Part shown: positions 17,739 through 62,415 of the stretch, in pieces
Position numbering within the stretch: position 1 is the first letter of the stretch
Layout of the letters: every line of letters starts with the position of its first letter
From: Acidobacteriota bacterium
GTDB taxonomy: Bacteria > Acidobacteriota > Terriglobia > 2-12-FULL-54-10
Length of the DNA stretch: 64,000 bases
Assembly: GCA_016191085.1 (NCBI GenBank)
Contig: JACPPJ010000070.1
Coordinates: 6,123-70,122, forward strand
Direction of reading: 5' to 3'
Position numbers and translations under genes: made by a program
Notes under the pieces: generated by a model
The model's input: the letters and a program-made list of their open reading frames with translations, nothing else
What the model was told of the DNA's origin: nothing
Databases searched by the model: none

Positions 17739-17796
17739 GAAGATCGCGTTCGGGAGATAATTAGGCGGCAGAGGGGACAGATACAGCAATGAAAGG

Positions 17797-19290: not shown

Positions 19291-19348
19291 GAAATATTTG
19301 GCGCGCGGAAGCAGGCGGTTTCCCGTAATCACTCGCGGAGATATACCA

Positions 19349-19498
19349 ATGGTCAGGATTTTTTGGGCGACGTGCCCGGAGTGCAAAGGACGTTTTCAGT
19401 GCCACTGGGAGGAATTACGCCATAAGGGTATACCCCTCCTGTGTCCCTATTGCGGCAAGAAGTTTCTGGACGAAGAAAGTCCTGCAATCGAAGAGTAA
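19349..19498 (+). CDS. small zinc-ribbon protein (49 aa)
   Basis: MVRIFWATCPECKGRFQCHWEELRHKGIPLLCPYCGKKFLDEE, two CxxC pairs. Located between the decarboxylase and the second transporter. Confidence 0.35.
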   Translation: MVRIFWATCPECKGRFQCHWEELRHKGIPLLCPYCGKKFLDEESPAIEE

Positions 19499-19665
19499 AA
19501 GCAGCAGGGACCGGCGCTCTGAATTTAATGCTTGGAAGGCGGAGTTCTTATACCCGCCTACTTCCAGAAAGGTTCTTCAAATGAAAATCCTCCCATTGAG
19601 GACTGATCGCAGCCGCCCTGCTGCGTGTTTCGCCATCTCCGAAAGCTTGGAGTGTTTTCCAGGAT

Positions 19666-28155: not shown

Positions 28156-28372
28156 GTTTTTTCGGTTCCTTTCCAGCCGTAGCACGTCGTTTCAAAGTCT
28201 TTCTGTGCCCCTGAGCGAGCGTGTGCAACGCCAACGCAAGCATAGAGGGAATTTTGCGGGTGCCAGTCTCCCAACGCGCAACGGCAACCCTGTGGACTCC
28301 GAGGGCGGACGCGAGCTGTTCCTGAGTCATTCCCAGCTTGTCGCGAATCACTCTAAGTTCTTCCGGGTTCAT
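28148..28372 (-). CDS. XRE-family HTH transcriptional regulator
   Basis: LGMTQEQLASALGVHRVAVARWETG is a canonical XRE/Cro-C1 HTH. Confidence 0.6.
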   Translation of the reverse strand: MNPEELRVIRDKLGMTQEQLASALGVHRVAVARWETGTRKIPSMLALALHTLAQGHRKTLKRRATAGKEPKKHG

Positions 28373-45748: not shown

Positions 45749-45794
45749 CTGAGGGTTCCAGACAAAAAAAGGGACTCCGAAGAGTCCCTCAGTT
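45749..45794 (-). terminator. Rho-independent terminator downstream of atpE (hairpin GGGACTCTTCGGAGTCCC plus T7 on the minus strand)
   Basis: Perfect 7-bp stem with tetraloop-like loop followed by TTTTTTT on the minus strand. Extended complementary flanks AACTGAGGG/CCCTCAGTT. Confidence 0.6.
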
Positions 45795-45807: not shown

Positions 45808-46122
45808 CTAGACTGTCACTTTCGCAAAAATGATCACGAGTGTATAGAGCGCCAGCGATTCAATTAACGCCAGACCCAGAATCAGCGCGGTTTGAATTGC
45901 TTTGGCAGCGCCAGGATTTCTTGCCATGCCTTCGACGGCCGAAGCCGTGGCCTTTCCCTGGGCCAGCCCGCAGAATGCGGACGCTATCGCCATTGCGAAG
46001 CCTGAGGTAATTACCACCCACATCTGAGCGGAAGGTGCCGCTGCGGCAGCTTCCTGCGCGAAAGCGGGAGCCGCCGACGCAAACAGGATCAGTCCCCATA
46101 AGGTTCGTTGCAGTTTCTTCAT
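45808..46122 (-). CDS. atpE: F0F1 ATP synthase subunit c with N-terminal leader
   Basis: GLAQGKA...ARNPGA...LILGLALIESLALYTLVI matches the c-subunit hairpin including the conserved carboxylate context. Confidence 0.8.
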   Translation of the reverse strand: MKKLQRTLWGLILFASAAPAFAQEAAAAAPSAQMWVVITSGFAMAIASAFCGLAQGKATASAVEGMARNPGAAKAIQTALILGLALIESLALYTLVIIFAKVTV

Positions 46123-46228: not shown

Positions 46229-46966
46229 CTAATGGCCTTCGGAAACGGCTCCGGACAAATAAACCGTCGTCAAAAGTATAAAAATGAATGTCTGGAGCGC
46301 GCCCACCGCAATATGTATGCCCATGAATACGGCGGGAACGCCGACTGGAATAAGGGAGAAGAAGACGGCTGTGATGTTTTCTCCCGCCAGCATGTTCGCA
46401 TAGAGTCGGACAGAGAGCGAAAGCGCGCGAGCCATGTGGCTGATCAACTCAATGAGGAACATCAGCGGAGCCAGCCAGAAAACTGGTCCGAGGAAAGTCT
46501 TCAGATAGCCGCCGGCTCCGTGATGGCGGAAACCCCAGAAGTTGTAATAGCAGAACGCAACCAGTGCACACCCGAGCGTAACTTGGATAAAGGCCGTGGG
46601 AGTTTCGAAGCCGGGTATCTCGCCAAGAACGTTGCTCGGGAAAATAAAGAGCACCAATGTGAAAAGCAGGGGTATGAAGTGCCGGCTGCCATGGCCGATG
46701 ATTTCCTCACCCTGCGTCTGCAACCCGCCCACGATCAGTTCGATCACTTGCTGAACATGACCAGGGCGGTCAGAAGACAGCCTCGTTCGCAACCATCCCA
46801 GAAACACTATCAGAAACACCACCACCAGAATCTCCATGGCAAAGAAATTACTGATGGGATGTTCCGGTAACTGAGGAGTGATGCCGATGGCTTGCAAAAC
46901 GCTTGTGACAGCTGGGCCAAAAATGCGGTTCAGAAATGCGGTAAACCAGAGCTCGTGGTGTTCCAT
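46229..46966 (-). CDS. atpB: F0F1 ATP synthase subunit a
   Basis: LSLSVRLYANMLAGE matches the conserved Arg-containing helix of subunit a. Confidence 0.85.
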   Translation of the reverse strand: MEHHELWFTAFLNRIFGPAVTSVLQAIGITPQLPEHPISNFFAMEILVVVFLIVFLGWLRTRLSSDRPGHVQQVIELIVGGLQTQGEEIIGHGSRHFIPLLFTLVLFIFPSNVLGEIPGFETPTAFIQVTLGCALVAFCYYNFWGFRHHGAGGYLKTFLGPVFWLAPLMFLIELISHMARALSLSVRLYANMLAGENITAVFFSLIPVGVPAVFMGIHIAVGALQTFIFILLTTVYLSGAVSEGH

Positions 46967-46990: not shown

Positions 46991-47467
46991 TTATGGACTG
47001 CTGAGCCCGCGCCAGAGTTCGTAGCACACCTCTACTAAAACCGCGCCGACAAACAAAAACAGTCCGGCAAAGAATGCTTCCAGGCTGATAAACGAACTCA
47101 CGAATATAGCATAGCCCGCTGCTCCTATCAACGCGTACCGAAGCATGATTCGGAGGGCGCTGCCTGCCGCACCAGGCGGCCTCACAGGAGAGTTATTTTC
47201 ATCGCGGCCTTGAGGCAGGAACGAGCGTGTTATGGAGTCAATCGCGCGGTACATCCAATGAAAGTTCAACGCCGAGAGCGCCGAACCCACAGCGAAGCCC
47301 GCTGCCCATCGCCAGCCGTACCAGACCCAGCAAACTGCCGTACCCGTTACGCCGAGCACCAACATGAATCGATACATGCGGCGTCCGGAGCCGGACAAAA
47401 ACTTTTCCTGATCCGGAGGTAGAGGAATTGGGTCAGGTGCGTTGGTTGCGCCGGAGGCCGTTTCCAT
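46991..47467 (-). CDS. atpI: ATP synthase protein I-like membrane protein
   Basis: Small hydrophobic protein directly upstream of atpB. Confidence 0.5.
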   Translation of the reverse strand: METASGATNAPDPIPLPPDQEKFLSGSGRRMYRFMLVLGVTGTAVCWVWYGWRWAAGFAVGSALSALNFHWMYRAIDSITRSFLPQGRDENNSPVRPPGAAGSALRIMLRYALIGAAGYAIFVSSFISLEAFFAGLFLFVGAVLVEVCYELWRGLSSP

Positions 47468-47471
47468 GAAG

Positions 47472-47759
47472 TCACTTCGAATTTCGGTTCACAATCCGAA
47501 TCAGCTCGACGAACGCAGCGGCGATTCCCAAGAGAAGGAAAACGATGTAGAGAAACGAGGTGTGAAAGACTCGGTCAAGCGCCAATCCAGACAGGTATCC
47601 TACGACGACGCAAGCGGGGAACATGAAGCCGATCGAGGCGTAGTCGCTGATCTGGGACCACAAAGGTTTCCGGGGAGCCGCCATAGTGCCGCACCTGAGA
47701 ATGCCCAGCAGCACTCCCTTCCTAAGGCATTGGTCAGCCGCTGAGAGACTGAACCTCAA
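47472..47759 (-). CDS. AtpZ/AtpI-family small membrane protein
   Basis: 95-aa two-TM protein between nuoN and atpI. Confidence 0.45.
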   Translation of the reverse strand: MRFSLSAADQCLRKGVLLGILRCGTMAAPRKPLWSQISDYASIGFMFPACVVVGYLSGLALDRVFHTSFLYIVFLLLGIAAAFVELIRIVNRNSK

Positions 47760-47802: not shown

Positions 47803-49275
47803 TTATCGCATGACTGCGAGAACGGTGCGATTGGCGAATTCGATGAACGGATTTGGGTAGATTCCGATGATCAGCGTCATAGCGGCGGTCACGCCCAGCG
47901 CCACGCGGATTCCTGGAGACATGCTGGGCAGTTCTTTATCGATCGGCTCGCGCATGAACATCACGCTTACGATTCGGAAGTAATAGTAGAGCGCGACCGC
48001 GACATAGAGGACTGCGATGACAGCCAGCGTATAGTGCCCCGTTTCCAACAGGGAAAGAAAGATGAAATACTTTCCGAGGAAACCGGCGGTCGGCGGAATA
48101 CCGGCAAGCGAGAGAAGAAAGATCACCATCAATACGGCGGCAGTCGGGCTCTTGTACATCAATCCCGCCATGTCGTCTATCTCATCGCCGATCAGGTCGC
48201 GGCGCCGCATCGCGACAATCACGGTGAAAGCGCCAAGATTCATGAAGGCGTACACCAACAGGTAAATCGAGATGCCTTTCAGTCCTGTATCGTTGCCTGA
48301 GACCAGCCCTAACATTAGATACCCAACATGCGATATAGCCGAGTAGCCAAGCAGCCGTTTGATATTCGACTGGCTGATAGCAGCGAGATTGCCAAGCGTC
48401 ATGGTGGCAATGGAGACACCAATCAATAATGGCAGCCATTGATCGCGTACAGGCCCGAGCGGCACCATAAAAATCCGCAAAAACAACGCGAATGCTGCGG
48501 CTTTTGGTCCGACAGACATAAAAGCAGTTGTAGGGTGCGGCGCGCCTTCGTAAACGTCAGGCAACCATTGATGGAAGGGGACCGCGCCGATTTTGAAGAA
48601 CAATCCTGCCGCGAGCGTCACCACCGCCATCATAACCAGCGGATCACCCGCAGGCCGCTGCGCTAGCTTGGACTGAATCTCCACGAGATTCGTTGAGTTG
48701 CTGATGCCGTACAGTAGCGACATTCCATATGCCAGGATGCCGCTTGAAAATGCTCCCAGGAGCAGGTACTTGAGCGCGGCCTCGTTGGAGCGCCGGTCAC
48801 GCTTCAGAAAACCGGTGAGAATGTATATGGAAATGACCATCAGCTCGAGGGAGACGAACAGCGTGATCAGGTCCATGCCGGTGGCCAGCAGGATCATTCC
48901 GGCTGTGGCGAAAAGGATAATCGCGTAGTGCTCGCCGTGGTTTTCTTCTTCAATCTCCAGGTACCGGATGGAGATGATGATGGTGATGGCCGTGGAGATC
49001 AGGAATATCCAGGTGAAGAAGATGCTAAAGCTATCGAGAACGATTGCGCCACGAAACGCCTCATAGACGCCGGCGCCATCGCGATTCATTTGCGACTGAA
49101 TCATCCACATCGCGACGGATGCGAAGCCGACACCGACGAGAGCCGTAACGGCATTGAAGTACTTATTGTGCTTTTCCAGTAGCAGGTCCGTCAGCATGAC
49201 GCCCATTCCGAAGAGGACGAGCAGAATGACGGGTTTCAATACCAGGAAATCGCCCGGCGTGAAATATTCGTTCAT
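47803..49275 (-). CDS. nuoN: NADH-quinone oxidoreductase subunit N
   Basis: 490-aa antiporter-like subunit. Last gene of the partial nuo cluster. Confidence 0.85.
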   Translation of the reverse strand: MNEYFTPGDFLVLKPVILLVLFGMGVMLTDLLLEKHNKYFNAVTALVGVGFASVAMWMIQSQMNRDGAGVYEAFRGAIVLDSFSIFFTWIFLISTAITIIISIRYLEIEEENHGEHYAIILFATAGMILLATGMDLITLFVSLELMVISIYILTGFLKRDRRSNEAALKYLLLGAFSSGILAYGMSLLYGISNSTNLVEIQSKLAQRPAGDPLVMMAVVTLAAGLFFKIGAVPFHQWLPDVYEGAPHPTTAFMSVGPKAAAFALFLRIFMVPLGPVRDQWLPLLIGVSIATMTLGNLAAISQSNIKRLLGYSAISHVGYLMLGLVSGNDTGLKGISIYLLVYAFMNLGAFTVIVAMRRRDLIGDEIDDMAGLMYKSPTAAVLMVIFLLSLAGIPPTAGFLGKYFIFLSLLETGHYTLAVIAVLYVAVALYYYFRIVSVMFMREPIDKELPSMSPGIRVALGVTAAMTLIIGIYPNPFIEFANRTVLAVMR

Positions 49276-49278
49276 ATA

Positions 49279-50907
49279 TTATCGTCCGCCCTCCGTAGCC
49301 GGCGTGCCAGTCTGGATAGCTGCCGGAGCGGTGGCGGCTATTGGGGATGCAGGGATGGGAGTAGCCGTCCTGGAGGCCCCGGGACCTCCGAACGCCTCAG
49401 GGTGCGCTGCGTAATAATCCGGCCGCACACGTTGAATGATGTTGGCAACCGGTCTCTCTAGAACTTTGAAGAATGGCTTCGGATACAGTCCGATCCAGAA
49501 AGCCCAGATGACGAGCGGAACCAGCGTCATCACCTCACGGAAGTTGAGATCCTTCAACTTCTCGTTCTTGGGATTGTTCAGGGTTCCGAACATAGTCCGC
49601 TGATACAGCCATAGTAGGTAAGCTGCGCCGAGAATGATCCCCGCGACGGCGAATGCGGCCCAAACCTTGCTCTCCTCGAACGCTCCCTGCAAGATGACGA
49701 ACTCGCCAATGAAGCCGTTCAAGGTCGGAAGACCCAGGGAAGACATCATCATAATCATAAAGAAGGTGGCGAATACGGGCATGACGGTCGAGATACCGCC
49801 AAACTCCGAAATTTCGCGGGTGTGCCGCCGCTCGTAAATGAGTCCGACGATCAAGAAGAGTGCGCCGGTCGAGATGCCGTGATTGACCTGCTGAATGATG
49901 CTGCCGGCCACGCCGTTCGGATTCAGGGCGAACAGACCGAGAGTACAGAATCCCAGGTGGCTGACTGAAGAATAGGCCACCAGCCTCTTCATATCCTTCT
50001 GCATTAGGCTGACCAGCGCGCCGTAAATAATAGCGACAATCGACAGGAAGATCATGGCGCGGACAATGCGGGAATCGCTTGATGCATTCGGCAGCATGGG
50101 CAATGAGAATCGCAGGAAACCATATGTTCCCATTTTCAGCAGAACGCCAGCCAGTATGACCGAGCCGGCGGTGGGCGCTTCCACGTGCGCGTCAGGAAGC
50201 CAGGTGTGGAACGGGAACATCGGCACTTTGATGGCGAAACCGACGAAGAACGCCAAAAACACCCAGATCTGTATATTCGTCGGCATCGTCAGTTGCTGGA
50301 GCGCAGGAATGTCGAACGTGTAGATGCCCGTCTGCGTGTGATTCCAGAAGTACAGCATCAGGATACCGAGGAGCATCAGTACCGAACCGACCAGCGTGTA
50401 GATGAAGAACTTGATTGCGGCGTAGAGCTTGCGTGGACCTCCCCAGATTCCAATGAGAAAGTACATCGGGACCAGCATGACTTCCCAAAACACGTAAAAC
50501 AGGAAGAAATCCAGAGCCATGAATACGCCGAGCATCCCAGATTGGAGGGTCAGCATGAAGACGTAGTATTCCTTCACGCGGTCTTCAATGGCTGTCCAAG
50601 ACGACAGGATGGCGATGGAGCCCAGTAGCGTAGTCAGCATGATCAGCAGCAGGCTGATGCCGTCGATGCCGAGCGCGTAGTTGGCGCCGATGGACGGAAT
50701 CCAAATGGCCTTTTCCACGAACTGGAAGCCGTCTTTGGAGCTGTCAAACCAGAACGCTAACGGCAGAGAGACCACGAAGCCGGCCAGAGCGATCAAATTG
50801 GCCAGCCAGCGGATCAGGTTCTTCTGCTCCTTCGGCACGAAAAGCAGCAAAATCGCGCCCGCCAGCGGCAGGAAGAGCACGATGCTCAAGATGTGATTGT
50901 TGAACAT
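49279..50907 (-). CDS. nuoM: NADH-quinone oxidoreductase subunit M
   Basis: 542-aa NuoM/ND4-like. Confidence 0.85.
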   Translation of the reverse strand: MFNNHILSIVLFLPLAGAILLLFVPKEQKNLIRWLANLIALAGFVVSLPLAFWFDSSKDGFQFVEKAIWIPSIGANYALGIDGISLLLIMLTTLLGSIAILSSWTAIEDRVKEYYVFMLTLQSGMLGVFMALDFFLFYVFWEVMLVPMYFLIGIWGGPRKLYAAIKFFIYTLVGSVLMLLGILMLYFWNHTQTGIYTFDIPALQQLTMPTNIQIWVFLAFFVGFAIKVPMFPFHTWLPDAHVEAPTAGSVILAGVLLKMGTYGFLRFSLPMLPNASSDSRIVRAMIFLSIVAIIYGALVSLMQKDMKRLVAYSSVSHLGFCTLGLFALNPNGVAGSIIQQVNHGISTGALFLIVGLIYERRHTREISEFGGISTVMPVFATFFMIMMMSSLGLPTLNGFIGEFVILQGAFEESKVWAAFAVAGIILGAAYLLWLYQRTMFGTLNNPKNEKLKDLNFREVMTLVPLVIWAFWIGLYPKPFFKVLERPVANIIQRVRPDYYAAHPEAFGGPGASRTATPIPASPIAATAPAAIQTGTPATEGGR

Positions 50908-50968
50908 TCTCTGTGAGTCCCTCTGTCAAGCGATCTCTGGACTGGCAAGGGCCAGCCGGAATCGGAAG

Positions 50969-53023
50969 TCAGCGTATTAAGTAATAGCTGAAAAAAATCA
51001 ACACTCCGAACACGATAAATAATGCGTAGACTTGCACCAAGCCCGTCTGCAACAGCCGGACGGGGTAGGAAAGCACCTTCACTGTGAACGAACTCAGCCG
51101 CACCGCGCCATCGATCACCCACGTGTCCCACCAGATTGACAGGCGCGAGGTGAGCAGCGTCAACCAAGCGGAGCCGTTCACGCCTCCGTCCACGATGCGC
51201 GCGTCAAAGCGGCCCAGCGCGGTGCCGCCACCCTTCGCAAAGCCATCGACGAACACGGCGTTATAGACTTCGTCCACGTAATACTTGTTGTAAAGCAGCC
51301 GCTGCACGCCCGGTACAGTCTGCACAATACGATCCGCGGCCTCAGGGCGCCGGATGAAGAAATACCATGCGATGAAGACGCCGAAGGCGCCTACGGCAAC
51401 TGAGAGAAACATAAACAGGTATTCTTGCGCCGCCGCCCCGTGTTCCGCTTCGTGTGCCAGCAGCTTTGAAGAATGCTCGAACACCGGTTCGAGCCACGTC
51501 TCCAAACGATTGCTCCCGCCGAGAATCCTCGGCCAGCCCACCCATCCGCCGACGATCGACAGCACTGCTAGGGTCATCAGCGGGATGGTCATGGTTTTTG
51601 GCGATTCGTGGATGTGGTGTTCTACTTCATGATCCACGCGCGATTGTCCGAAGAATGTCAGAAACACCAGACGCCAGATGTAGAGTGCCGTCAGTCCGGC
51701 TGTTACGAAGCCGACGACCCAGAGCAGCAGTCCCGCGTGAGTCTCGGCAGAAAATGCCTTCCAAAGGATTTCATCCTTACTGAAGAAGCCCGCAAACGGC
51801 GGCGCGCCTATGATAGCCAGCGATGCAATAAAGAAGGTCCAGAACGTAACTGGAATCTTGTGTCGCAGGGCGCCCATCTTGCGCATGTCCTGCTCGCCGG
51901 AAAGCGCGTGAATGACGCTGCCCGATCCAAGGAAGAGCAGGGCCTTGAAGAAGGCGTGCGTCATGAGATGGAAAATTCCCGCGCCGTATGCACCTACGCC
52001 GCAGGCCAGAAACATGTAGCCGAGCTGGCTGACGGTGGAGTAAGCCAGCACGCGCTTGATGTCGTACTGAGCCAGACCAATCGTAGCCGCGAAAATCGCT
52101 GTCAAAGCGCCTACGCCGGCGACCATCGCCATAGTTTGCGGCGACAGGGAGAAGAGGACATTCGAGCGCGCCACCATGTAGACCCCGGCGGTGACCATCG
52201 TCGCAGCGTGGATCAAGGCGCTGACCGGTGTCGGGCCTTCCATTGCGTCGGGCAGCCAAACGTAAAGCGGGATCTGCGCCGATTTTCCGGTTGCGCCGAT
52301 GAACAGCAGCAGTGTCATAAGCGCGACAGTCGCGTCACCGGAAGTTAGCAATCCGGTTTCGACCTGCCGGTTCACCTCGCCAAAAACGCTGGTAAATCGG
52401 AGTGAGCCGAACGTCGCGAGCATCAGCAGCACGCCGAGTACGAACCCGGCGTCGCCGATTCGGTTCACGATGAATGCTTTAATGCCGGCCTTGGTAGCCG
52501 AATCGCGGAGGAAATAGAACCCGATCAGCAGATAAGAGCAGAGACCAACGCCTTCCCACCCGACGAACAGCAGCAGGTAGTTATTGGCCAGAACCAGCGT
52601 GAGCATGAAGAATATGAAAAGGTTCAGGTAGCCGAAGAAGCGGTGGTAACCGGCTTCATGTCCCATGTAGCCCACGGAGTATACGTGGATGAGGAAGCCA
52701 ACGCCCGTCACCACCAGAATCATCACCGAGGAAAGCGGATCGAGCAGGAATCCCCAGTCGGCCTGCAGGTGACCCATCTGGCCGTTGGTCAGGTGGAATG
52801 GGCCGCCGGGCAGCCAGGTATAAAGAATCTTTTCGTAAGAGTGCTCGGACAGGCGAGCGAGCTGTAAAACGGCCCCCAGCGACATGAGGAAAGATACCAG
52901 CACCGTTCCGGGGCAGATCACGCTCACGGCGGCTTTGGGCAGTTTCTTGCCAAACAGCAGCATTAGAATGGCGCCTGCAGCCGGGAACAGCGGAATCATC
53001 CAAATGGAATCGAGAAAATTCAT
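50969..53023 (-). CDS. nuoL: NADH-quinone oxidoreductase subunit L
   Basis: 684 aa with a long C-terminal amphipathic helix region. NuoL/ND5-like. Confidence 0.85.
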   Translation of the reverse strand: MNFLDSIWMIPLFPAAGAILMLLFGKKLPKAAVSVICPGTVLVSFLMSLGAVLQLARLSEHSYEKILYTWLPGGPFHLTNGQMGHLQADWGFLLDPLSSVMILVVTGVGFLIHVYSVGYMGHEAGYHRFFGYLNLFIFFMLTLVLANNYLLLFVGWEGVGLCSYLLIGFYFLRDSATKAGIKAFIVNRIGDAGFVLGVLLMLATFGSLRFTSVFGEVNRQVETGLLTSGDATVALMTLLLFIGATGKSAQIPLYVWLPDAMEGPTPVSALIHAATMVTAGVYMVARSNVLFSLSPQTMAMVAGVGALTAIFAATIGLAQYDIKRVLAYSTVSQLGYMFLACGVGAYGAGIFHLMTHAFFKALLFLGSGSVIHALSGEQDMRKMGALRHKIPVTFWTFFIASLAIIGAPPFAGFFSKDEILWKAFSAETHAGLLLWVVGFVTAGLTALYIWRLVFLTFFGQSRVDHEVEHHIHESPKTMTIPLMTLAVLSIVGGWVGWPRILGGSNRLETWLEPVFEHSSKLLAHEAEHGAAAQEYLFMFLSVAVGAFGVFIAWYFFIRRPEAADRIVQTVPGVQRLLYNKYYVDEVYNAVFVDGFAKGGGTALGRFDARIVDGGVNGSAWLTLLTSRLSIWWDTWVIDGAVRLSSFTVKVLSYPVRLLQTGLVQVYALFIVFGVLIFFSYYLIR

Positions 53024-53027
53024 CGCG

Positions 53028-53336
53028 CTACCATTTCATCAGGTCAATTTCGTCGGCGTTTATGGTTTCCTTGTTGCGGAACAAAGCGATGATGATGCCC
53101 AGTCCCACCGCAGCCTCCGCCGCAGCGTCCACAATGATGAAGACAGCAAAGGCTTGTCCGTTAATCGAGAGCAACTGCTTTGAGAACGCCACCAGGTTGA
53201 TGTTCACCGCGTTGAGGATCAGCTCGATGGACATGAGAATAATCACCACGTTACGGCGGGTGAGCACGCCGATGGTGCCGATGGTGAAAAGCGCCGTGCT
53301 CAAAAATATGTAATGAGCCGTTGTAACCTCTGGCAC
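53028..53336 (-). CDS. nuoK: NADH-quinone oxidoreductase subunit K
   Basis: 102 aa, three TM helices, ND4L-like. Confidence 0.85.
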   Translation of the reverse strand: MPEVTTAHYIFLSTALFTIGTIGVLTRRNVVIILMSIELILNAVNINLVAFSKQLLSINGQAFAVFIIVDAAAEAAVGLGIIIALFRNKETINADEIDLMKW

Positions 53337-53346
53337 GAATCTTCTC

Positions 53347-53931
53347 CTAGATTTCCTTCTTCGCCATTACGACCGCGCCTACAATCGCTACAAGAAGCAG
53401 CACGGAAGCGATCTCGAATGGCAGCAGGTAATCGCGGTACAGAGCGCAGGCGATCAGTTCAGTATTAGGTTGCAGGAAACCTCCAGGCCCAAGTCCTGGA
53501 ATATCCCGGCAGGACTTCAAAAACTCAATGACGGCGGCGTCCGGGTTTAACGTGCCGGTGCCAGTATCGCCAAACCGGAACGATTCCCTGCCCTTTACGA
53601 TGAAATAAGCGAGTTCCGCCATGAGCGCCAAGGCGCATCCGACAGCAATGGTCCACTGATGATTGAACTGGCGCTGCTTGGCGGCTTCATCCAGATTGAC
53701 TAGCATGATCACGAACAGAAACAGCACCATGATGCCGCCGATATAGACCAGCACCTGCACAGCGGCCAAAAATTCGGCGTGCTGATTCAGATAAATACCC
53801 GCGACACCGAGGAGGGTAACGATCAGCCAAATGGCGCTGTGCACCGCGTTGCGGCGTGTAATCGTCAGGATCGCCCCGCCGAGAATAATGGCGGACAGCA
53901 GGTAGAAGAAAAACCCTGGTAAGACGTTCAT
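53347..53931 (-). CDS. nuoJ: NADH-quinone oxidoreductase subunit J
   Basis: 194 aa, ND6-like. Confidence 0.8.
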   Translation of the reverse strand: MNVLPGFFFYLLSAIILGGAILTITRRNAVHSAIWLIVTLLGVAGIYLNQHAEFLAAVQVLVYIGGIMVLFLFVIMLVNLDEAAKQRQFNHQWTIAVGCALALMAELAYFIVKGRESFRFGDTGTGTLNPDAAVIEFLKSCRDIPGLGPGGFLQPNTELIACALYRDYLLPFEIASVLLLVAIVGAVVMAKKEI

Positions 53932-53987
53932 AACGTTGATTTAGCGCGATCAGCTTTCAACTCTGACTGCTGATCGCTGGTTGCTGG

Positions 53988-55160
53988 TTAAGAGCCTTTC
54001 AATACCATTACGATTCCGGTGACAATCACGTTTGCAATCGCCAGAGGAATCAGCCAGTGCCATCCGATGTTCATCAACTGGTCGTACCGGTAGCGCGGGA
54101 AAGTGAAGCGGACCCAGATGAAACCGTAAATACACAAAGCGACCTTCAAGCTGAACCAGAACAACCCTTGAATCCAGGTCAGCACTGCGGGCATCGCGAA
54201 CAGGCCGGCCAGCATGAGGCAGACGATACCAAGGCCGGCCATGCCGATCTTTTCTGGCGGACGGCTTTCGCGGCCCGCTCCCATAAACGACAACCCAGCG
54301 AGGACGATCATGGCTATGATGGGGGTATAGCGCAGGAAATCGAGCGCCTGAACGTTGGGAAACGGCCGTAGCCAGCCGCCGAAAAAGAGCGTAACGGCTA
54401 TGGCAGAGACCACCACGATGTTGGAATATTCGGCCAGGAAATAAAGAGAGAAGCGGAAACCGCTATACTCCGTGTGATATCCGGCAACAATTTCGGATTC
54501 AGCTTCCGGCATATCGAACGGCGCGCGGTTGGTTTCAGCCAGCGCGGCGACCACATAGATGAAGCAGGCCACCGGCTGATAAAAGACGAACCACATGCCG
54601 GCGTCAAGCTGCGCCTTTACGATCCCTTGCATGCTGAGCGTGCTGGCCACCATCAATCCGCCGATCAGCGCGAATCCAAGCGCAACTTCATAACTCACGA
54701 GCTGCGCCGCGGAACGGAGAGCGCCCAGTAAAGGGTAATGACTGTTCGAACTCCAGCCGCCCAGAATAATGCCGAGAATGCCGACCGAAGATACCGCCGT
54801 TATGAAGAGCAGCCCGATGTTCACATCAGTGATATAGAACTTATCGCTGAAGGGAATGACCGAGAAGGACACGAACGCTGCGGTAACGGAGATGACCGGC
54901 GCCAGCCAAAATACCCATTTGTCGGCGTTTGCGGGAATGATGTCTTCTTTGATCAGCAGCTTGACAGCGTCTGCGATAGGTTGGAGCAGCCCGTGAGGAC
55001 CCACCCGCATCGGTCCCAACCGCACCTGGATGTCGGCCATGACTTTCCGTTCGAGCAGCACGATGTATCCGGCGACCAACGGAAACACCAGTATGATAAT
55101 CAGGATAAAAATTGTTGGCCAGAAGTATGGCTGAAACGCGGCGGGTAGTTGCAAGGGCAA
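53988..55160 (-). CDS. nuoH: NADH-quinone oxidoreductase subunit H
   Basis: ND1-like motifs (LERKVMADIQVRLGP). Confidence 0.85.
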   Translation of the reverse strand: MPLQLPAAFQPYFWPTIFILIIILVFPLVAGYIVLLERKVMADIQVRLGPMRVGPHGLLQPIADAVKLLIKEDIIPANADKWVFWLAPVISVTAAFVSFSVIPFSDKFYITDVNIGLLFITAVSSVGILGIILGGWSSNSHYPLLGALRSAAQLVSYEVALGFALIGGLMVASTLSMQGIVKAQLDAGMWFVFYQPVACFIYVVAALAETNRAPFDMPEAESEIVAGYHTEYSGFRFSLYFLAEYSNIVVVSAIAVTLFFGGWLRPFPNVQALDFLRYTPIIAMIVLAGLSFMGAGRESRPPEKIGMAGLGIVCLMLAGLFAMPAVLTWIQGLFWFSLKVALCIYGFIWVRFTFPRYRYDQLMNIGWHWLIPLAIANVIVTGIVMVLKGS

Positions 55161-55190
55161 CTCGGGGGCCTCCTCGAACGGACTTATAAG

Positions 55191-55365
55191 GGCACAGCTT
55201 TAGCAGGCTGCTGAAAAATGCCTGTGGATGCCATCCTGAAGACCGGCGCTTTTTGCCGGGCTGAAGGATCTGCTTTTGTTTTCAATACGGCCAGAGAAAG
55301 CAGATTCCTCGCTGCGCGCGGAATGACATCATCGGAACATTTTTCAGCAGCCTGTTAGCCGTGCC
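55191..55365. repeat. MITE-like or structured intercistronic element in the nuoD-nuoH gap: about 28-30-bp terminal inverted repeats flanking about 115 bp with internal hairpins
   Basis: Left arm GGCACAGCTTTAGCAGGCTGCTGAAAAATG. The reverse complement of the right arm (55338..55365) is GGCACGGCTAACAGGCTGCTGAAAAATG. Internal hairpins CCGGCgctttttGCCGG and CTGCTTT..AAAGCAG. Confidence 0.45.
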
Positions 55366-55439
55366 GTAGCTCCAGCCTTCGCTGGCCCTTAGGCTCTGAA
55401 GTTCAAGCTCTCAGTGGCGGAAGCCGGAACGTTCCTGTC

Positions 55440-55470
55440 ATATTTCGGCATGGCTGAAGCCATGCCCTTA
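55440..55470. repeat. palindromic repeat unit GGCATGGCTGAAGCCATGCC (same family as 58977..58997, 59071..59092, 62254..62273, 62364..62384)
   Basis: Perfect palindrome read in the sequence. Related copies sit in every intergenic gap of the nuo clusters. Confidence 0.5.
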
Positions 55471-55483
55471 GGACTTTTCAACT

Positions 55484-56605
55484 CTACCGGTCTACTTCGC
55501 CCAAGACAATGTCGATGGTGCCGATGATAGCGACCACATCGGCGATTAAGTGCCCGCGCACCATTCGGTCGAGGGCCTGCAAATTAATGAATGATGGCGG
55601 CCGCACTCTAACGCGGTATGGCTGCGTGCTCCCGTCGCTTACCACCAGATATCCAAGCTCTCCCTTGGGCGCTTCAATCGAGTGGTAAACTTCACCCGGA
55701 GGCGGCTTCATGATCTTGGGTACCTTCGCCATGATGGGGCCGTCAGGCAGGCGGTCTACGGCTTGGCGAGTAATACGGATGGCCTGCCGCATCTCTTCCA
55801 TTCTCACCATGTACCGGTCGAACGTGTCGCCGTTTTCACCTGTGGGAATATCGAATTCAAAATCGCTATACGCTGCGTACGGCTTCGCTTTGCGCAGGTC
55901 CCACTTTACTCCGCTGGCGCGCAGCAACGGACCCGTGACACCCAGATCAATGGCTGCTTCCGCCGTGAGAATGCCAATCCCCTTGGTCCGCTCCAGCCAG
56001 ATCCGGTTTCCGGTGAGCAGGGCCTCATATTCTGCGACCTTGCTCGGGAATACGTCGCAGAACTTCCTCACCTGGTCTTCGAAACCCTCGTAGGTCTCAT
56101 ACTGCAGACCGCCGATGCGGAACGCATGAGTAGTCAGCCGAGCCCCGCAGTAGGACTCGAATATCTTCAAAATCTCTTCGCGCTCACGGAAGCAATAGAA
56201 CAAAGGCGTGATGGCGCCGATGTCGAGCGCATGCGTGCCCAGCCAGAGCAGGTGACTGGATATGCGGTTCAGCTCCGTCAGGATGGTGCGGACGTAGCGC
56301 GCGCGGGGCGGCGCTTCGACGTTCAACAGTTTCTCGACGGCCTCGCAGTATCCCAGGCCGTTGGACACTGCGGCCACGTAGTCCATCCTGTCTACGTAGG
56401 GGTTGAATTGTACCCAGGTGCGGTGCTCAGCGATCTTTTCCACACCGCGATGCAGGTATCCGATCACGCAATCGGCGCCCAGGATCTTCTCGCCATCGAG
56501 CTTCAGGATGACGCGCAGCACTCCGTGCGTGGAGGGGTGCTGCGGTCCCATATTGATGATGACTTCGTTGGAGTCCAGGAACGTGGCCGTGGGCACGCTG
56601 CTCAT
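55484..56605 (-). CDS. nuoD: NADH-quinone oxidoreductase subunit D
   Basis: 49-kDa subunit motifs ([13 protein letters not shown]...). Confidence 0.85.
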
Positions 56606-57258
56606 TGGCCGCTCTCAATGTGCAGGTTTTCACGCACCCACTTCACGTCCTGCTGGATGATGCTGTAGTCCTTGCGGAGGGGATGTCCCTCCCATTCGTC
56701 CGGCAATAGAATGCGCTTGAGATTGGGGTGATTTGCGAACCGGATGCCGAACATGTCAAAGGCTTCCCGCTCCAGCCAGTCGGCTGCTGCCCACACTGCC
56801 ACAACGCTCTCGATGCTCTCGTCCTCGGCAAGCGGCGCTTTCAGGCGAAGTTGCTCGTTGCGCGGAAAGGAGTAGAGCTGGTAAATCACTTCAAAACGCT
56901 TCTCGCGCCTGGGGTAGTCAACCGCCGTCAGGTCAGTGAGCATGTCGAACTTGCATTCGGATTTCAAATAGAGCGCGATGGGAAGAATGCTTTCGCTCGG
57001 GAGAATCAGAAAATTCTGATGCAAGTAGGTCAAAGCCTCGATCGCGATGCCCGGAAAGGCTCCGCGAATCGCGGTAACTAGCTCGCTTTCCCACGGAGTT
57101 GGCGCCGGTCCCGCTGCTTTGGGGGGAGCGGCTTTGGCCGCTTCTTTGGCTTCTGCTTCGGGCTTGGCGCCAGCGCCTGGCTTGGCAGCCGCCGGCTGAG
57201 ACGGCCCAGCCGGCGCGGTACCGCTTGTGGGTTGCTCTGGCTGTTTTTCGTCCGGCAT
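56602..57258 (-). CDS. nuoC: NADH-quinone oxidoreductase subunit C with about 60-aa Pro/Ala/Lys-rich N-terminal extension
   Basis: 30-kDa subunit core (..[10 protein letters not shown]...FEVIYQLYS...[12 protein letters not shown]...). Start chosen at MPDEKQPEQ (57258), not the ORF-track 57582. Confidence 0.75.
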
Positions 57259-57563
57259 TGAGTGACACCTATCGTGAACCTGGACGCTCGCGAAACTCTC
57301 ATAAATATCACACGCCCCAAAGGGTGTCAACAACAACCGGGGTATGGTATAGCCTATGCACTTCGTATCCCCCCTGTGGAGTTGAAGTGTGTTAGTCAGA
57401 AGAGCCATCAAGGCCACTTGGCGGCTCTTCCAGCAAATCTCGGAGACCAAGGTATCTGGGGATTCGGGTGCTGATCTCGCCTCGGCCGGATAGGCCGGAC
57501 CATTGAACAAAAACCGATCAAACTCGAAGGAGTTGCCCTCGGCACAGAGTTGAATGCCGATCA

Positions 57564-58880
57564 CTACGCCGGAGGGGCGCAACGGAAGCGCCGGGCTTTC
57601 AGCTCCGGGCGGGGAAGCGAGCCGGGCGGCGCGAATTCCACCGTGGGACGCAGGTTAAGGGTGGTTCGCATTTCTGTGACGATCCTTTCCGCCAGTGCGT
57701 CATGCTGACGGTTCTGCATTCCGGCGGTTTCAACGCGCAACAGTAGCTCCTGCATTTCGCGTTGAATCACAACCTCGCCTTGAAATTCCACAATTTCCGG
57801 GAATCGCCACAGGATGTTTTCGATGGCGGACGGAAACACATTGACGCCGCGTACCGTGATCATGTCGTCGGCGCGGCCCAGAATTCCGCCTTTGAGCAGC
57901 GCGAACGTTCGTCCGCAGGCGCACCGTTTCCGTGTAACCTCGGCCAGATCACCGGTGCGGTAGCGGATTAGTGGGGAGCCTTCGCGGCCCAACGTGGTCA
58001 AGATCACCTCACCGCGCCGGCCGTCTTCCACAGGCTTGCTTGTGGCGGGATCAATTACCTCGATGATGTACTCCGTCTCATTGGTGTGAGGGCCGAGTTG
58101 TTTGCTGCACTCGTAGCCGTACGCGCCGACCTCGGTCATGCCGACATGATCGTAAGCTTTCGATCCCCAGTATTCCTCGATGCGGCGGCGCGTGGACGGA
58201 ATGCCCGCTCCCGGCTCGCCTGCGTGAACGGTGATGCGAATTCCCATCTTGGCCGTCTCTACACCGTGCGATTGCGCCACCTCGGCCAATCGCAATGCGT
58301 ACGTGGGAGTGCAGACCAGCACCGTTGGCCGCCAATCGCACATGGTAGCGATGCGCTGCTCTGTGGTTTGGCCGCCGCCGGTCAGGGCCATTGCGCCTAT
58401 GTGTTGAGCGCCTTCGAATGCTCCCCAGAATCCGATGAACGGCCCAAACGAAAACGCTACAAACACACGATCGCCGGGTGCTACGCCCGCTCCGCGCAAC
58501 ACAAAGCCCCACTCACGTACGTAGGTGTGCCACGATTCAGGAGTGTCGGGCCAGCGCAGCGGCGCCCCTGTGGTGCCGGAAGTTTGATGCAGGCGTGTGT
58601 AACGTTCCAGCGAGAATGTCAGTTTGTTTCCGAACGGAGGGTGCGCGGCCTGATCGGCCATCAGCTCGGCCTTTATTGTAAATGGAAGCTCTGAGATGCG
58701 GTTGAGCGGCATCGGCTTGCGAATTCCGGCCTCATGCAGCTTTTGACGGTAGAAAGGATTACTCTTCAGCAGCAATGATTGCAGCTTGCGGAAGCGTTTG
58801 TCTTGCAGCTCGTTCAGCTTTTTGCGCGAGAGCGTCTCCAGCTTCCGGTCGTAAAAAAGTTCTGGGGATTTGCTTGGCAT
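57564..58880 (-). CDS. phenylacetate-CoA ligase (PaaK)-like / F390-synthetase-family adenylate-forming enzyme
   Basis: 438 aa with PaaK-family architecture (TSGTTGAP P-loop-like AMP motif, YRTGD). Confidence 0.75.
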   Translation of the reverse strand: MPSKSPELFYDRKLETLSRKKLNELQDKRFRKLQSLLLKSNPFYRQKLHEAGIRKPMPLNRISELPFTIKAELMADQAAHPPFGNKLTFSLERYTRLHQTSGTTGAPLRWPDTPESWHTYVREWGFVLRGAGVAPGDRVFVAFSFGPFIGFWGAFEGAQHIGAMALTGGGQTTEQRIATMCDWRPTVLVCTPTYALRLAEVAQSHGVETAKMGIRITVHAGEPGAGIPSTRRRIEEYWGSKAYDHVGMTEVGAYGYECSKQLGPHTNETEYIIEVIDPATSKPVEDGRRGEVILTTLGREGSPLIRYRTGDLAEVTRKRCACGRTFALLKGGILGRADDMITVRGVNVFPSAIENILWRFPEIVEFQGEVVIQREMQELLLRVETAGMQNRQHDALAERIVTEMRTTLNLRPTVEFAPPGSLPRPELKARRFRCAPPA

Positions 58881-59124: not shown

Positions 59125-60633
59125 TTAGCGTGCCTGCTGCAGCCATTGGGCGGCTTGCGTTGCGAGGTCCATCACGTTTTGAGGAAAGAGGCCGAGGTAA
59201 AGTGTCCCAACGACACTAATAGCGAGCGCCAGGCGCTCGGGTGCACGGAGCGGTTCACACGGCACCTCGCGCGCGGGGGCGCTCATATACATCGAGACCA
59301 GCACGCGCAGGTAGTAATACGCCGCGATGCCGCTGTTCAGAACGCCCAGCACGGTGAGCCAGACCAAGTCGCCGTGAATGGCGGCGCGGAATACATAGAA
59401 TTTGCCAAGAAAGCCGGCCGTCAGCGGCACGCCGATCAACGATAGAAGAAAGATGCTGAACATCCCGGCCAGAAACGGGAACCGGAATCCCAGGCCGGCA
59501 TAGTCTTCGATCTCCAAATACCGCTCCCCTCGCCCACCCAAGTGCGTGACGACAAGGAACGCCCCGATATTCATAAAGGCGTACGCAACCAGGTAATACA
59601 GCACGGCCGCGACGCCGTCGGCCGAATGTGTCGTAAACGCTACCAGCACGTACCCGGCATGCGCGATGGCGGAGTATGCCAGCATGCGTTTGATATTGGC
59701 CTGCAGCAGCGCCCCGAGATTACCTAAGAACATCGAGAGCACGGCCACTATCCACAGCAGCCAGGACCATCTGCCGGAATAAGCCCCCAGGCCGACCATA
59801 AAGATTCGTAAGAACGCCGCGAACGCCGCCGCCTTGGGAGCAGTCGAAAGAAAGGCCGTGACCGGAGTAGGCGCACCCTGGTACACATCGGGAGTCCAGA
59901 TTTGGAACGGCGCGGCCGACACCTTGAATGCCAAGCCTACGAACATCAGCGCAATTGCAACACCGACGAGCGAAGCGGGGAATTGGGTACTGACCGCCAG
60001 ATTAGCAGCGGCGGGATGCACAGGAGTGCCAGCCGACTGCCCACGGAGCGCAGTGTTGAAGGCTTCATTGATCTGCGTGAGCCGCGTGCTGCCTGTCGAG
60101 CCGAACATCAATGCCACGCCATAAAGGAAGAAGGCAGTGGCAAACGATCCGAGCAGAAAATATTTTAGCGAAGCCTCGCTGCTGGTTGGCACGTCGCGGC
60201 GGAAGCCCACCAGGACATAGCTGGCGAGCGAGGAAATCTCCAGGCCAATGAAAACCAGAATCAATTCGTTGGCCGATGCCATTACGCCCATACCTACGGT
60301 GCCGAAAAGCAGTAAAGCGTAATACTCCGCGGCGGAGAGGCCTTCGCGGTGCAGGTATGTCGAAGACGAGAGCACCACCAGCAGCGCGATCAGGAGAAAC
60401 AGCAGGCGGAAGAAACACCCAAACGAATCCGCCAGAAACACGCCGCCGAACGCCGCTACGGGATGGTTGAATTGAACAGCAACGGCTATGATGGCGGCGA
60501 TCAGCCCTGCATAGGTTGCACCGGCGGCAATGCGCTCTGACTTCTCGAAAAAGGCGCCGAGCAGCATAACGAGTATCCCGGCGGCCGTCAGGATGATCTC
60601 GGGCAGGATTGCAATGGCATCAGACGGTTGCAT
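59125..60633 (-). CDS. nuoN: NADH-quinone oxidoreductase subunit N (second nuo locus)
   Basis: 502-aa NuoN paralog. Confidence 0.85.
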   Translation of the reverse strand: MQPSDAIAILPEIILTAAGILVMLLGAFFEKSERIAAGATYAGLIAAIIAVAVQFNHPVAAFGGVFLADSFGCFFRLLFLLIALLVVLSSSTYLHREGLSAAEYYALLLFGTVGMGVMASANELILVFIGLEISSLASYVLVGFRRDVPTSSEASLKYFLLGSFATAFFLYGVALMFGSTGSTRLTQINEAFNTALRGQSAGTPVHPAAANLAVSTQFPASLVGVAIALMFVGLAFKVSAAPFQIWTPDVYQGAPTPVTAFLSTAPKAAAFAAFLRIFMVGLGAYSGRWSWLLWIVAVLSMFLGNLGALLQANIKRMLAYSAIAHAGYVLVAFTTHSADGVAAVLYYLVAYAFMNIGAFLVVTHLGGRGERYLEIEDYAGLGFRFPFLAGMFSIFLLSLIGVPLTAGFLGKFYVFRAAIHGDLVWLTVLGVLNSGIAAYYYLRVLVSMYMSAPAREVPCEPLRAPERLALAISVVGTLYLGLFPQNVMDLATQAAQWLQQAR

Positions 60634-60639
60634 GTTAGA

Positions 60640-62244
60640 TCAGGGCCTGCGCTCGGAATCGCCACTGGGATGCGCCGAATGCATTCGCTTGGAAACCCAC
60701 GGCACAGAAACCGTGCCGGGGCTACCCACGAAAGGATGCGGCGTGTCGTTGATGCGCACGTGCTGCTTCGGTGCCAATCCGCCCTTGTTCAGGATCGCCG
60801 CCGTAGATGCATCTATTCTGCGGAGGAAGTACGGCGAGAAGATGCCCATGATGACCATCAGCGCCACGGCGGGAAACAAAATGAGTTTTTCGCGCGCGTT
60901 CAGGTCCGGCATATGTTTGTTGTGGTCGGCCGTCTCTCCGAGAAATACACGCTGGTACATCCACAACATGTATATCGCTGACAGCACGGCGGCAGTCGCG
61001 CCAAGCACGGTATAGAGCAAACGCGCTTGCTTGACCCCGACCAGGATCAGAAATTCACCCACGAAGTTATTCAACAGCGGCAGGCCGATGCTGGAAAGTG
61101 AGGCGATCAGGAAATACGTCGCCAGTGCGGGCGCCGGTGTGGCCAGTCCTCCCATACGGCTGATCTCGCGCGTGTGGCTGCGCTCGTAAATCATTCCAAC
61201 CAGCAAGAACAACATTCCCGTCGAGACTCCATGATTGATCATCTGGTACAGCGCGCCTGCGATCGCAATCTCGTTGAAGCAGAAGATTCCCAACACTACA
61301 AAGCCGAGGTGACTGACAGAGGAGTACGCGATCAGCTTCTTCAGGTCGGGCTGTACCATGGAGACCAGAGCGCCGTAGATGATTCCGAAGATGGCGAGTG
61401 CGATGATGGCTGGCGCAAAATGCTGAGCGGCATCAGGGAACAGCGGCAGGCAAAAGCGCAGCATTCCATATGCGCCCATCTTCAGCAGGACTCCCGCCAG
61501 CATGACGGAACCCGCCGTAGGAGCCTCGACGTGCGCGTCGGGCAACCAGGTGTGCAGCGGGAACAGCGGAACTTTGATCGCGAATGCCACAAAAAAGGCG
61601 AGAAAGAGCCAGAACTGCTGCGGGTACGAAAGCTTCAGCGCGCCTATGGCGATGCCGTGCGAGATGGACAAATAATCAAACGTGCCGAACACGTTGTGCA
61701 GCCAGATGATTCCCACCAGCATCAACAGTGAGCCGATGCTGGTATATAAAAAGAACTTCACTGCTGCATAGATGCGGCGCTCGTGTCCCCAGATGCCGAT
61801 AAGGAAATACATGGGCACGAGCGTCACTTCCCAAAAGACGTAAAACAGCAAAAGATCGAGCGCCAGAAACACGCCGATAGTTCCGGTTTCGAGCAGCAGG
61901 AGAAAAAAGAAAAACTCCTTGACGTGTTCCTGGACCGAGCGCCAGGAGACCAGCACGCACAGCACGCTGAGAAACGTGACGAGCAGGACCAGGAATAAAC
62001 TGATCCCGTCCACGCCGATGTAGTAGCGGATGGTAGGCGACTGAATCCAGGCCTTGTCGGTAATGAACTGCATCTCGGCGCTGCTCGCCTGGAATCCGGC
62101 CAACAGCCCAAGCGACAGAACGAAGGTCGCCAGTGAGAAGACCAGCGCGATTATGCGAATGGCAGATGGGCGCCGCGGCAGAAACAGCAACAGCAGTGCG
62201 CCTACCGAGGGCAGGAAAAGGACGACATTGAGCAAGTTTCTCAT
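60640..62244 (-). CDS. nuoM: NADH-quinone oxidoreductase subunit M (second nuo locus)
   Basis: NuoM paralog. ATG at 62244 is preferred over GTG at 62259, which overlaps the palindromic repeat. Confidence 0.85.
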   Translation of the reverse strand: MRNLLNVVLFLPSVGALLLLFLPRRPSAIRIIALVFSLATFVLSLGLLAGFQASSAEMQFITDKAWIQSPTIRYYIGVDGISLFLVLLVTFLSVLCVLVSWRSVQEHVKEFFFFLLLLETGTIGVFLALDLLLFYVFWEVTLVPMYFLIGIWGHERRIYAAVKFFLYTSIGSLLMLVGIIWLHNVFGTFDYLSISHGIAIGALKLSYPQQFWLFLAFFVAFAIKVPLFPLHTWLPDAHVEAPTAGSVMLAGVLLKMGAYGMLRFCLPLFPDAAQHFAPAIIALAIFGIIYGALVSMVQPDLKKLIAYSSVSHLGFVVLGIFCFNEIAIAGALYQMINHGVSTGMLFLLVGMIYERSHTREISRMGGLATPAPALATYFLIASLSSIGLPLLNNFVGEFLILVGVKQARLLYTVLGATAAVLSAIYMLWMYQRVFLGETADHNKHMPDLNAREKLILFPAVALMVIMGIFSPYFLRRIDASTAAILNKGGLAPKQHVRINDTPHPFVGSPGTVSVPWVSKRMHSAHPSGDSERRP

Positions 62245-62249
62245 AACAC

Positions 62250-62385
62250 GCCAGGGCACGGTTCAGCCGTGCCATAAAATCCAACATACGCCGGCTTTAA
62301 CCGCTGAGGGCCAATCCTCAGAGGCTCAAAGCCCAAGAAGCAGCGGCCGTATCGGCACGGCTGAAGCCGTGCCCTGACGGCCTGG
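62250..62385. repeat. composite palindromic intergenic element R2, homologous to R1 (hairpin GGGCACGGTTCAGCCGTGCC, GGCTTTAACCGCTG, hairpin GGCACGGCTGAAGCCGTGCCC)
   Basis: Same module order as R1. Sits between nuoL(2) stop and nuoM(2) start. Confidence 0.5.
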
Positions 62386-62415
62386 TACACGAATTCTGCA
62401 AGTTCGCCAACATTT

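Follow-up and report, generated by a model that had tools for sequence, protein, structure and literature searches.

A conserved Terriglobia complex I operon lacking nuoB and nuoI, with the missing subunits probably supplied in trans

A 64,000-nt stretch of an Acidobacteriota genome (contig JACPPJ010000070.1; hereafter the window, in whose positions all cluster coordinates are given) carries the genes nuoC-D-H-J-K-L-M-N of respiratory complex I on its minus strand at 47803–57258, as read from the listing of open reading frames (ORFs) together with NCBIfam and Pfam scans. The cluster is an intact and strongly conserved complex I gene set, representing a lineage-typical variant: about 80 independent assemblies of Acidobacteriota (Terriglobia), some with contigs exceeding 1 Mb, show the same layout. 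The arrangement is the norm in Terriglobia and not an oddity of one genome. The operon encodes neither NuoB (cluster N2) nor NuoI (clusters N6a/b). Judging from the comparisons below, we consider it reasonably probable that both iron–sulfur (Fe-S) subunits are supplied in trans from a third nuo locus and are likely shared among paralogous complex I scaffolds.

All eight Nuo ORFs are full length, and each scores above the curated cutoff of its TIGRFAM or Pfam model. The membrane subunits H, J, K, L, M and N of the complex I core set are all present and intact. They are encoded by nuoH (53988–55160; 390 aa; PF00146, 394 bits), whose TTG start is preceded by a GAGGAGG ribosome-binding site, nuoJ (53347–53931; 194 aa; PF00499 and ORF coordinates), nuoK (53028–53336; 102 aa; PF00420 and NF004320), nuoL (50969–53023; 684 aa; TIGR01974, 748.8 bits), nuoM (49279–50907; 542 aa; TIGR01972, 640.9 bits) and nuoN (47803–49275; 490 aa; TIGR01770, 440.5 bits), all on the minus strand. 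The quinone-binding (Q) module is represented by nuoD (55484–56605, minus strand; 373 aa), a short-type gene scoring 528.6 bits against the NF008974 cutoff of 522, and by nuoC (56602–57258, minus strand; 218 aa; TIGR01961 and PF00329). Models of Mrp cation/proton antiporters and of hydrogenases score far under their cutoffs; with Nuo models as the best family matches and NuoH, NuoJ and NuoK present, an Mrp-type antiporter or a membrane-bound hydrogenase module was ruled out. Compared with every solved NuoH/ND1 structure, window NuoH has about 60 extra residues inserted between positions 268 and 328, and the protein varies from 390 to 451 aa within the family regardless of the presence of nuoI in the operon.

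The start of nuoC was picked by alignment with relatives. Its ORF spans 56602–57582, with the NuoC domain confined to the last 140 residues, and extends upstream to a TTG codon at 57582; the extra 108 codons have no family match and no similarity. The ATG at 57258 is likely the true start, because the resulting sequence ‘MPDEKQP’ agrees with the family N-terminus ‘MxDExxP’. The protein predicted from this codon possesses the Pro/Ala/Lys-rich N-terminal extension already noticed in the initial annotation, about 55 aa in length, and a C-terminal tail ‘...[17 protein letters not shown]’. The extension is real and is a family trait, measuring 35–80 aa in the alignment of relatives. A conserved ‘PWES’ motif and a 14-residue C-terminal tail are family traits as well; for defining the family, the tail consensus is written ‘QQDxxWVxENLxIESGQ’.

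None of the genes nuoA, nuoB, nuoI, nuoE, nuoF and nuoG is found in the cluster or in its two gaps. This bears out the gene content read initially from the ORFs. A six-frame search of the whole window for the motifs C..C..C...C (NuoI) and CC..E (NuoB) returned nothing credible, and tblastn gave no match in the 64 kb at E ≤ 1 to the NuoA, NuoB and NuoI proteins encoded by related loci. By these searches, the window set is accompanied by neither a PF00507-like nuoA nor genes for NuoB and NuoI. The genes nuoE, nuoF and nuoG of the NADH-oxidizing (N) module are absent from the cluster, where only a 323-bp repeat element separates nuoD and nuoH. The gap between nuoH and nuoJ is 56 bp and therefore leaves no space for nuoI.

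The insert between nuoD and nuoH (55161–55483) consists of nested inverted repeats, resembling a MITE or REP element, without coding capacity for a Nuo subunit. Arms of 20 nt (55201–55220 and 55338–55357) lie 117 nt apart and are enclosed by outer arms of 18 nt (55187–55204 and 55453–55470) that lie 248 nt apart; stop codons interrupt the one frame tried, and the element occurs once within the window. It is missing from most relatives, where nuoD and nuoH abut (e.g., locus L004; the loci of relatives are numbered with the prefix L). The 305-bp spacer upstream of nuoC (57259–57563, minus strand) is non-coding and has no Pfam match. Hidden or fused versions of nuoA, nuoB or nuoI, named at the outset as an outcome that would overturn the reading, were ruled out by the motif search, by tblastn (E ≤ 1) and by the lack of any family match in the 108 codons upstream of the nuoC ATG. 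As first proposed, the locus alone cannot encode a redox-competent enzyme, since NuoB, NuoI and NuoA are all missing, and its partner subunits must be encoded elsewhere.

Relatives were collected from contigs representing one genome per species; 80 loci were annotated with the window proteins and then subjected to a census of nuoA and nuoI. The relatives of window NuoD all belong to Acidobacteriota, mostly Terriglobales with some Bryobacterales or Solibacteraceae, and are 78–85% identical to it. Among the 76 loci showing the stretch from nuoD to nuoJ, 61 read D-H-J without nuoI, seven read D-H-I-J, and eight possess the Bryobacterales-type order C-D-I-J-K-L-M-N-H. Within the 61 D-H-J loci, nuoA lies upstream of nuoC in 55, is absent from four (L001, L003, L035 and L041), and cannot be scored in two that are cut; L002 also shows no nuoA and is cut before nuoJ, hence it falls outside the 61. 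Overall, nuoA is found upstream in 64 of the 80 related loci. By motif search and tblastn, nuoB is found in 0/80. Of the 56 loci showing a complete nuoN, 41 have atpB behind it on the same strand. Independent long contigs (L161–L165) read A-gap-C-D-H-I-J-K-L-M-N-atpZ-atpI-atpB-atpE, keeping nuoI and still lacking nuoB.

We define these loci as the Terriglobia nuo(A)-C-D-H-(I)-J-K-L-M-N-atpZ-I-B-E family, to which the window cluster belongs by gene order, orientation, the NuoC extension and tail, and the F0 genes located downstream. The likely history of the operon involves an early loss of nuoB, followed by loss of nuoI in a large subclade and of nuoA in a few lineages, including that of the window. 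A conserved ORF of about 105–113 aa occupies the usual nuoB slot between nuoA and nuoC in 43 related loci (e.g., L004, 8870–9190; L163, 6289–6630), and its L163 copy reaches the cutoff of the Pfam model bPH_2 (bacterial PH domain). This ORF is not present in the window, in L001–L003, in L161 or in the Bryobacterales loci; the median nuoA-to-nuoC gap in relatives is 506 bp. A nuoB remnant in that gap was ruled out, as no similarity was found and many relatives carry the conserved bPH-domain ORF there.

The genes of the cluster are under strong purifying selection: compared with L003, dN/dS is 0.07–0.16 for nuoD, H, J, K, L, M and N, at dS values above 1.3 that are saturated. The quinone-site motifs of NuoD are intact in the window and across the family, namely ‘GPQHPSTHG’ in the beta1–beta2 loop (HPxxHG), ‘DRMDY’ (DRxDY) and ‘LHRGVEK’ (LHRGxEK). 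From Thermus Nqo4 and the Yarrowia 49-kDa subunit, we take the HPxxHG histidine and the DRxDY tyrosine to be quinone ligands, and the LHRGxEK arginine to lie beside cluster N2. NuoH retains the quinone-channel loop motif [13 protein letters not shown], and the longer stretch ‘[26 protein letters not shown]’ is also kept. Taken together, these motifs point to an ordinary quinone site that would need cluster N2. A conserved quinone site would in turn imply electron delivery from N2, hence a requirement for NuoB, and for NuoI to reach NuoB. The cluster looks like a working scaffold of a quinone reductase.

A possible source of the missing Fe-S subunits is suggested by Acidobacterium capsulatum, which belongs to the same bacterial class. 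Its NDH-I operon comprises ACP_0296 (A), ACP_0295 (C), ACP_0294 (D), ACP_0292–0290 (E, F, G), ACP_0289 (H) and ACP_0288–0284 (J to N), with the nuoB and nuoI rows left blank (PMC11636273 Table S3). The sole listed nuoB (ACP_2566) and nuoI (ACP_2569) reside in a third cluster, ACP_2565–2576, ordered A-B-C-D-I-H-J-K-L-M-M-N and devoid of EFG. At low O2, nuoA and nuoB of the third cluster are upregulated and nuoD-N downregulated (PMC11636273); this differing response would fit a role of nuoB beyond its own cluster, but is only a hint. The operon ACP_0296–0284 resembles the window cluster in lacking nuoB and nuoI and in adjoining atpB/atpE (ACP_0282/0283). It differs in having nuoA, as well as nuoEFG between D and H, so it matches the second nuo locus of the window rather than the cluster in question; moreover, its atpB-atpE genes are convergent with nuoN, whereas the atp genes of the window are co-oriented with it.

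In our interpretation, the eight genes of the cluster specify subunits of a complex I-type enzyme that pumps protons and reduces quinone. Six of these are membrane subunits (H, J, K, L, M and N, out of seven in the full set), and two are the Q-module subunits without an Fe-S cluster (C and D). The cluster belongs to a paralog family standard in Terriglobia, whose operons never contain nuoB; most members have also lost nuoI, and a few, among them the window cluster, nuoA. NuoB, NuoI and NuoA would then arrive in trans. The neighboring locus of the A-C-D-E-F-G-H-J-K-L-M-N type may offer NuoA and perhaps NuoE-F-G, but presumably not NuoB or NuoI; we infer that the latter two are most likely encoded by a third locus, as in A. 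capsulatum, and that they are shared and not duplicated. By serving two or three paralogous scaffolds of C/D/H and membrane arm, NuoB and NuoI would yield isoenzymes with a common Fe-S connecting module. As regards the electron donor, the family resembles 11-subunit enzymes in lacking EFG between D and H.

Several points weigh against supply from a shared third locus. No nuoB or nuoI was located for the window genome or for any genome with this cluster type, and the sole NuoB search, seeded with the NuoB of L136, reached only proteins of Latescibacterota and Krumholzibacteriia and no Terriglobia nuoB. The best NuoI homologues looked up again lay between nuoH and nuoJ in operons of this same family, and none stood in a third locus. 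The A. capsulatum table represents its authors' annotation and not an exhaustive genome search (PMC11636273). The second locus of the window continues beyond position 64000, and we infer its composition from relatives that are 71–75% identical. Dedicated stand-alone extra copies of the two genes would agree with the data just as well.

Such dedicated copies, unlinked nuoB, nuoI and nuoA genes serving only this cluster with nothing shared, form an alternative that we regard as unlikely, though it survives better than the others. It has a model in cyanobacteria, where the ndh genes are scattered and variable subunits join a common core. The strong purifying selection on a cluster that needs NuoB and NuoI would agree with it, as would the stepwise loss of nuoI and nuoA in different sublineages, expected if copies exist elsewhere. 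On the other hand, the A. capsulatum table has only one entry each for nuoB and nuoI (PMC11636273), and the 10-kb surroundings of about 90 loci yielded no stand-alone nuoB.

The adjacent second nuo locus, which extends with its 5′ part past the window end, was originally put forward as a possible partner of the cluster, and in this view it would supply all missing subunits, NuoB and NuoI included. In favor of this, the two loci are direct neighbors with a common orientation, the two cluster types also adjoin each other in L134, L090, L096 and L101, and the second locus very probably carries nuoA and nuoEFG. The nearest relatives of this locus encode a NuoM 71–75% identical to the second NuoM of the window (NuoM2), and two of them, at 72–75% (L081 and L082), also have a PaaK-like gene after nuoN. 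These relatives read nuoA-C-D-(small insert)-E-F-G-H-J-K-L-M-N without nuoB and nuoI: both genes are missing from all those examined, namely L081/L166, L168/L169 (a 4.93-Mb contig), L170 and L171, with L083 read for the H–J junction only. The same holds for A. capsulatum ACP_0284–0296 (PMC11636273). In three of the four relatives with the junction read, nuoA and nuoC overlap or abut, and therefore there is no slot for nuoB; nuoH and nuoJ are adjacent or parted by hairpin repeats only. Thus, only part of the original proposal stands: a locus of this type could give NuoA, and perhaps NuoE-F-G, but is probably the wrong source of NuoB and NuoI, and we consider supply of the whole missing set from it improbable.

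Several features of the second-locus type deserve a separate description. Its NuoC has no N-terminal extension, no ‘PWES’ motif and no C-terminal tail. In all four relatives its NuoD reads LHTGIEK and not LHRGxEK (L166, 8054–9247; L169, 8681–9874; L170, 8422–9630; L171, 7659–8864), i.e., with Thr in place of the conserved N2-adjacent Arg. The H–J gap of L081 (6722–7064) is filled by hairpin repeats similar to those of the window D–H insert. The nuoD–nuoE junction of the 12-gene type contains a different small insert in each relative (L166, 9365–9980; L170, 9627–10004; L171, 8912–9283): an AF2212-like and PIN toxin–antitoxin pair, an ORF of 125 aa with no known function, and a 23S_rRNA_IVP gene. 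Within this essential operon, the junction has the appearance of a hot spot for insertions.

Still less probable, in our estimation, is that the C-D-H-J-K-L-M-N set works without NuoB and NuoI altogether, as a Terriglobia-wide ion pump or regulator devoid of N2 and N6. Such a redox-independent ion-translocating module, or one with a non-homologous electron input or partner such as the bPH-domain protein, might be expressed together with the F0 subunits a and c and tied to them in function. The zero count of nuoB in 80 related loci, the absence of nuoI from most of them, the small bPH-domain ORF in the nuoB slot of 43 relatives and the conserved co-orientation with atpZ-I-B-E, with no terminator between, are all compatible with this idea. 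However, the quinone-ligand His and Tyr and the N2-facing Arg of NuoD, as well as the quinone-channel loop of NuoH, are kept, a conservation not easily accounted for if N2 delivered no electrons. The sister 12-gene operon, endowed with NuoEFG, also lacks nuoB and nuoI, and there the two subunits must come in trans. Furthermore, atpB and atpE are housekeeping F0 genes, which in A. capsulatum are not co-oriented with nuo. The intact NuoD and NuoH motifs likewise leave unsupported the initial suggestion of a divergent membrane-arm paralog set with another partner. Finally, a decaying remnant or an assembly artefact, which might be suspected from the three missing core genes, the repeat element inserted between nuoD and nuoH and the mobile-element genes elsewhere in the window, is effectively refuted: eight full-length ORFs scoring above family cutoffs with dN/dS of 0.07–0.16 at saturated dS rule out a pseudogene set, and the same order in about 80 independent assemblies, some on contigs above 1 Mb, rules out misassembly.

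The arrangement without nuoB and nuoI is common in Terriglobia and visible in published tables, and has been named once in passing. Hausmann et al. report ‘nuoACDHJKLMN operons’ in metagenome-assembled genomes (MAGs) of peatland Acidobacteria, with one operon per MAG also containing nuoEFG; they list the arrangement only and do not discuss the origin of NuoB and NuoI (bioRxiv 10.1101/197269). This is the only mention of such an operon found in the literature searched. Their operons have the same order as the window cluster, lack the same two genes, and match the 55 related loci with nuoA. The window cluster differs from them in lacking nuoA as well, like L001, L003, L035 and L041 (and L002, cut before nuoJ).

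Among better-known enzymes, the window cluster resembles 11-subunit complex I (nuoABCDHIJKLMN of Bacillus, Bacteroidetes and Chlorobi; NDH-1 of cyanobacteria and plastids), sharing with it the lack of NuoEFG between D and H and a short-type NuoD; a low-complexity NuoC N-terminal extension is likewise common to the window and to the Bacillus-type model NF005832. However, the 11-subunit systems encode NuoB and NuoI (NdhK and NdhI) once per enzyme type, and the window operon family encodes none. Aquifex aeolicus possesses several paralogous nuo sets, and some of its single-copy subunits may serve more than one isoform. The best structural match to window NuoD is PDB 7q5y, ‘subunit C/D 2’ of A. 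aeolicus complex I; in that organism C and D are fused, the phylum is another one and the genes are distributed differently, and a literature search on isoform sharing in Aquifex gave nothing usable. Chloroflexus aurantiacus also has a paralogous incomplete nuo set, for which the missing NuoG was proposed to be shared with the complete operon (PMC3150298). Unlike the window cluster, it lacks parts of the N-module and not NuoB and NuoI, and contains two nuoM genes. Two nuoM genes define ‘2M’ complex I as Chadwick et al. 2018 are cited in PMC11636273; each of the two nuo loci in the window has a single nuoM, with no duplicate between nuoL and nuoN, and hence neither is of the ‘2M’ type. A genome survey of complex I does not mention Acidobacteria, and a survey based on hidden Markov model (HMM) mining assigns a ‘complete’ complex I to most Acidobacteriota, saying no more. 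In the literature searched, no paper addresses the retention of nuoB and nuoI outside two Terriglobia complex I operon types or its consequences for assembly. To this the window contributes a variant in which nuoA is missing too and which stands in tandem with the 12-gene operon.

Downstream of nuoN, the minus strand continues with an atpZ-like gene (47472–47759; PF09527, ATPase_gene1), found in the same position in L161–L165, followed by atpI (46991–47467; ATP synthase protein I, PF03899), atpB (46229–46966; F0 subunit a, TIGR01131 and NF004481) and atpE (45808–46122; F0 subunit c). After atpE lies a hairpin followed by a T-run (45769–45790, minus strand). It is the only strong terminator-like hairpin between the PaaK-like gene and atpE, and therefore likely marks the operon end; beyond it, hpnI is located on the opposite strand. 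The nuo cluster and atpZ-atpI-atpB-atpE probably constitute one transcription unit. The genes of F0 subunits a and c appear to be co-transcribed with this nuo cluster type in most relatives too. A candidate promoter can be read by eye in the spacer upstream of nuoC, 45–70 nt before the gene start: TTGACA at 57330–57325, a 17-nt spacer ending in TGA, and TATTTA at 57307–57302. A consensus promoter scan did not flag this candidate (57302–57330).

On the other side of that spacer lies the gene for a PaaK-family adenylating enzyme of 438 aa (57564–58880, minus strand), scoring far below equivalog cutoffs, and behind it the tail of the second nuo locus (59125–64000, minus strand), with nuoN2 at 59125–60633, nuoM2 at 60640–62259 and nuoL2 at 62416–64000, cut by the window end. 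The position of the PaaK-like ligase between two same-strand nuo loci is as initially described; the gene belongs by synteny to the upstream second locus, because the same gene follows nuoN in L081 and L082. The NuoN2, NuoM2 and NuoL2 proteins are 39–51% identical to their paralogs in the first cluster, and the first-cluster paralogs as a whole are 39–54% identical to the second-locus type; by this divergence the two clusters are old paralogs, and a recent duplication of the neighboring locus was ruled out. In L134, L090, L096 and L101 the two cluster types are neighbors but convergent, with ...L-M-N of the EFG-type facing atpE-atpB-atpI-N-M-L-K, whereas in the window they stand in tandem with the PaaK-like gene between them. 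The tandem order looks like a local rearrangement, which may have cost the window cluster its nuoA.

Elsewhere in the window, a Cas3-like HD-helicase, two tyrosine integrases and a DUF3631 protein (201–2477, 8140–9315, 27043–28185 and 30284–31495) suggest at least one integrated mobile element in the first half. A UbiD-family decarboxylase (17797–19290) is encoded between two DASS-family (Na_sulph_symp) transporters (16293–21210), and L166 has a UbiD gene as well, a few kb upstream of its second-locus homologue.

Terriglobia rank among the most abundant bacteria of soils. Our comparison suggests that two of their complex I operon types, the NADH-oxidizing A-C-D-E-F-G-H-J-K-L-M-N operon and the type found in the window, are always without nuoB and in most cases without nuoI. 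Should a single NuoB/NuoI pair serve two or three different scaffolds, complex I in these bacteria would be modular, with isoenzymes built around a shared Fe-S connector. This would bear on complex I assembly, on the tuning of respiration to O2 supply, given that the A. capsulatum nuoA and nuoB transcripts diverge from the rest of their cluster, and on metabolic predictions from genomes, in which such operons are often rated ‘incomplete’. The question of sharing is directly testable in cultivable strains.

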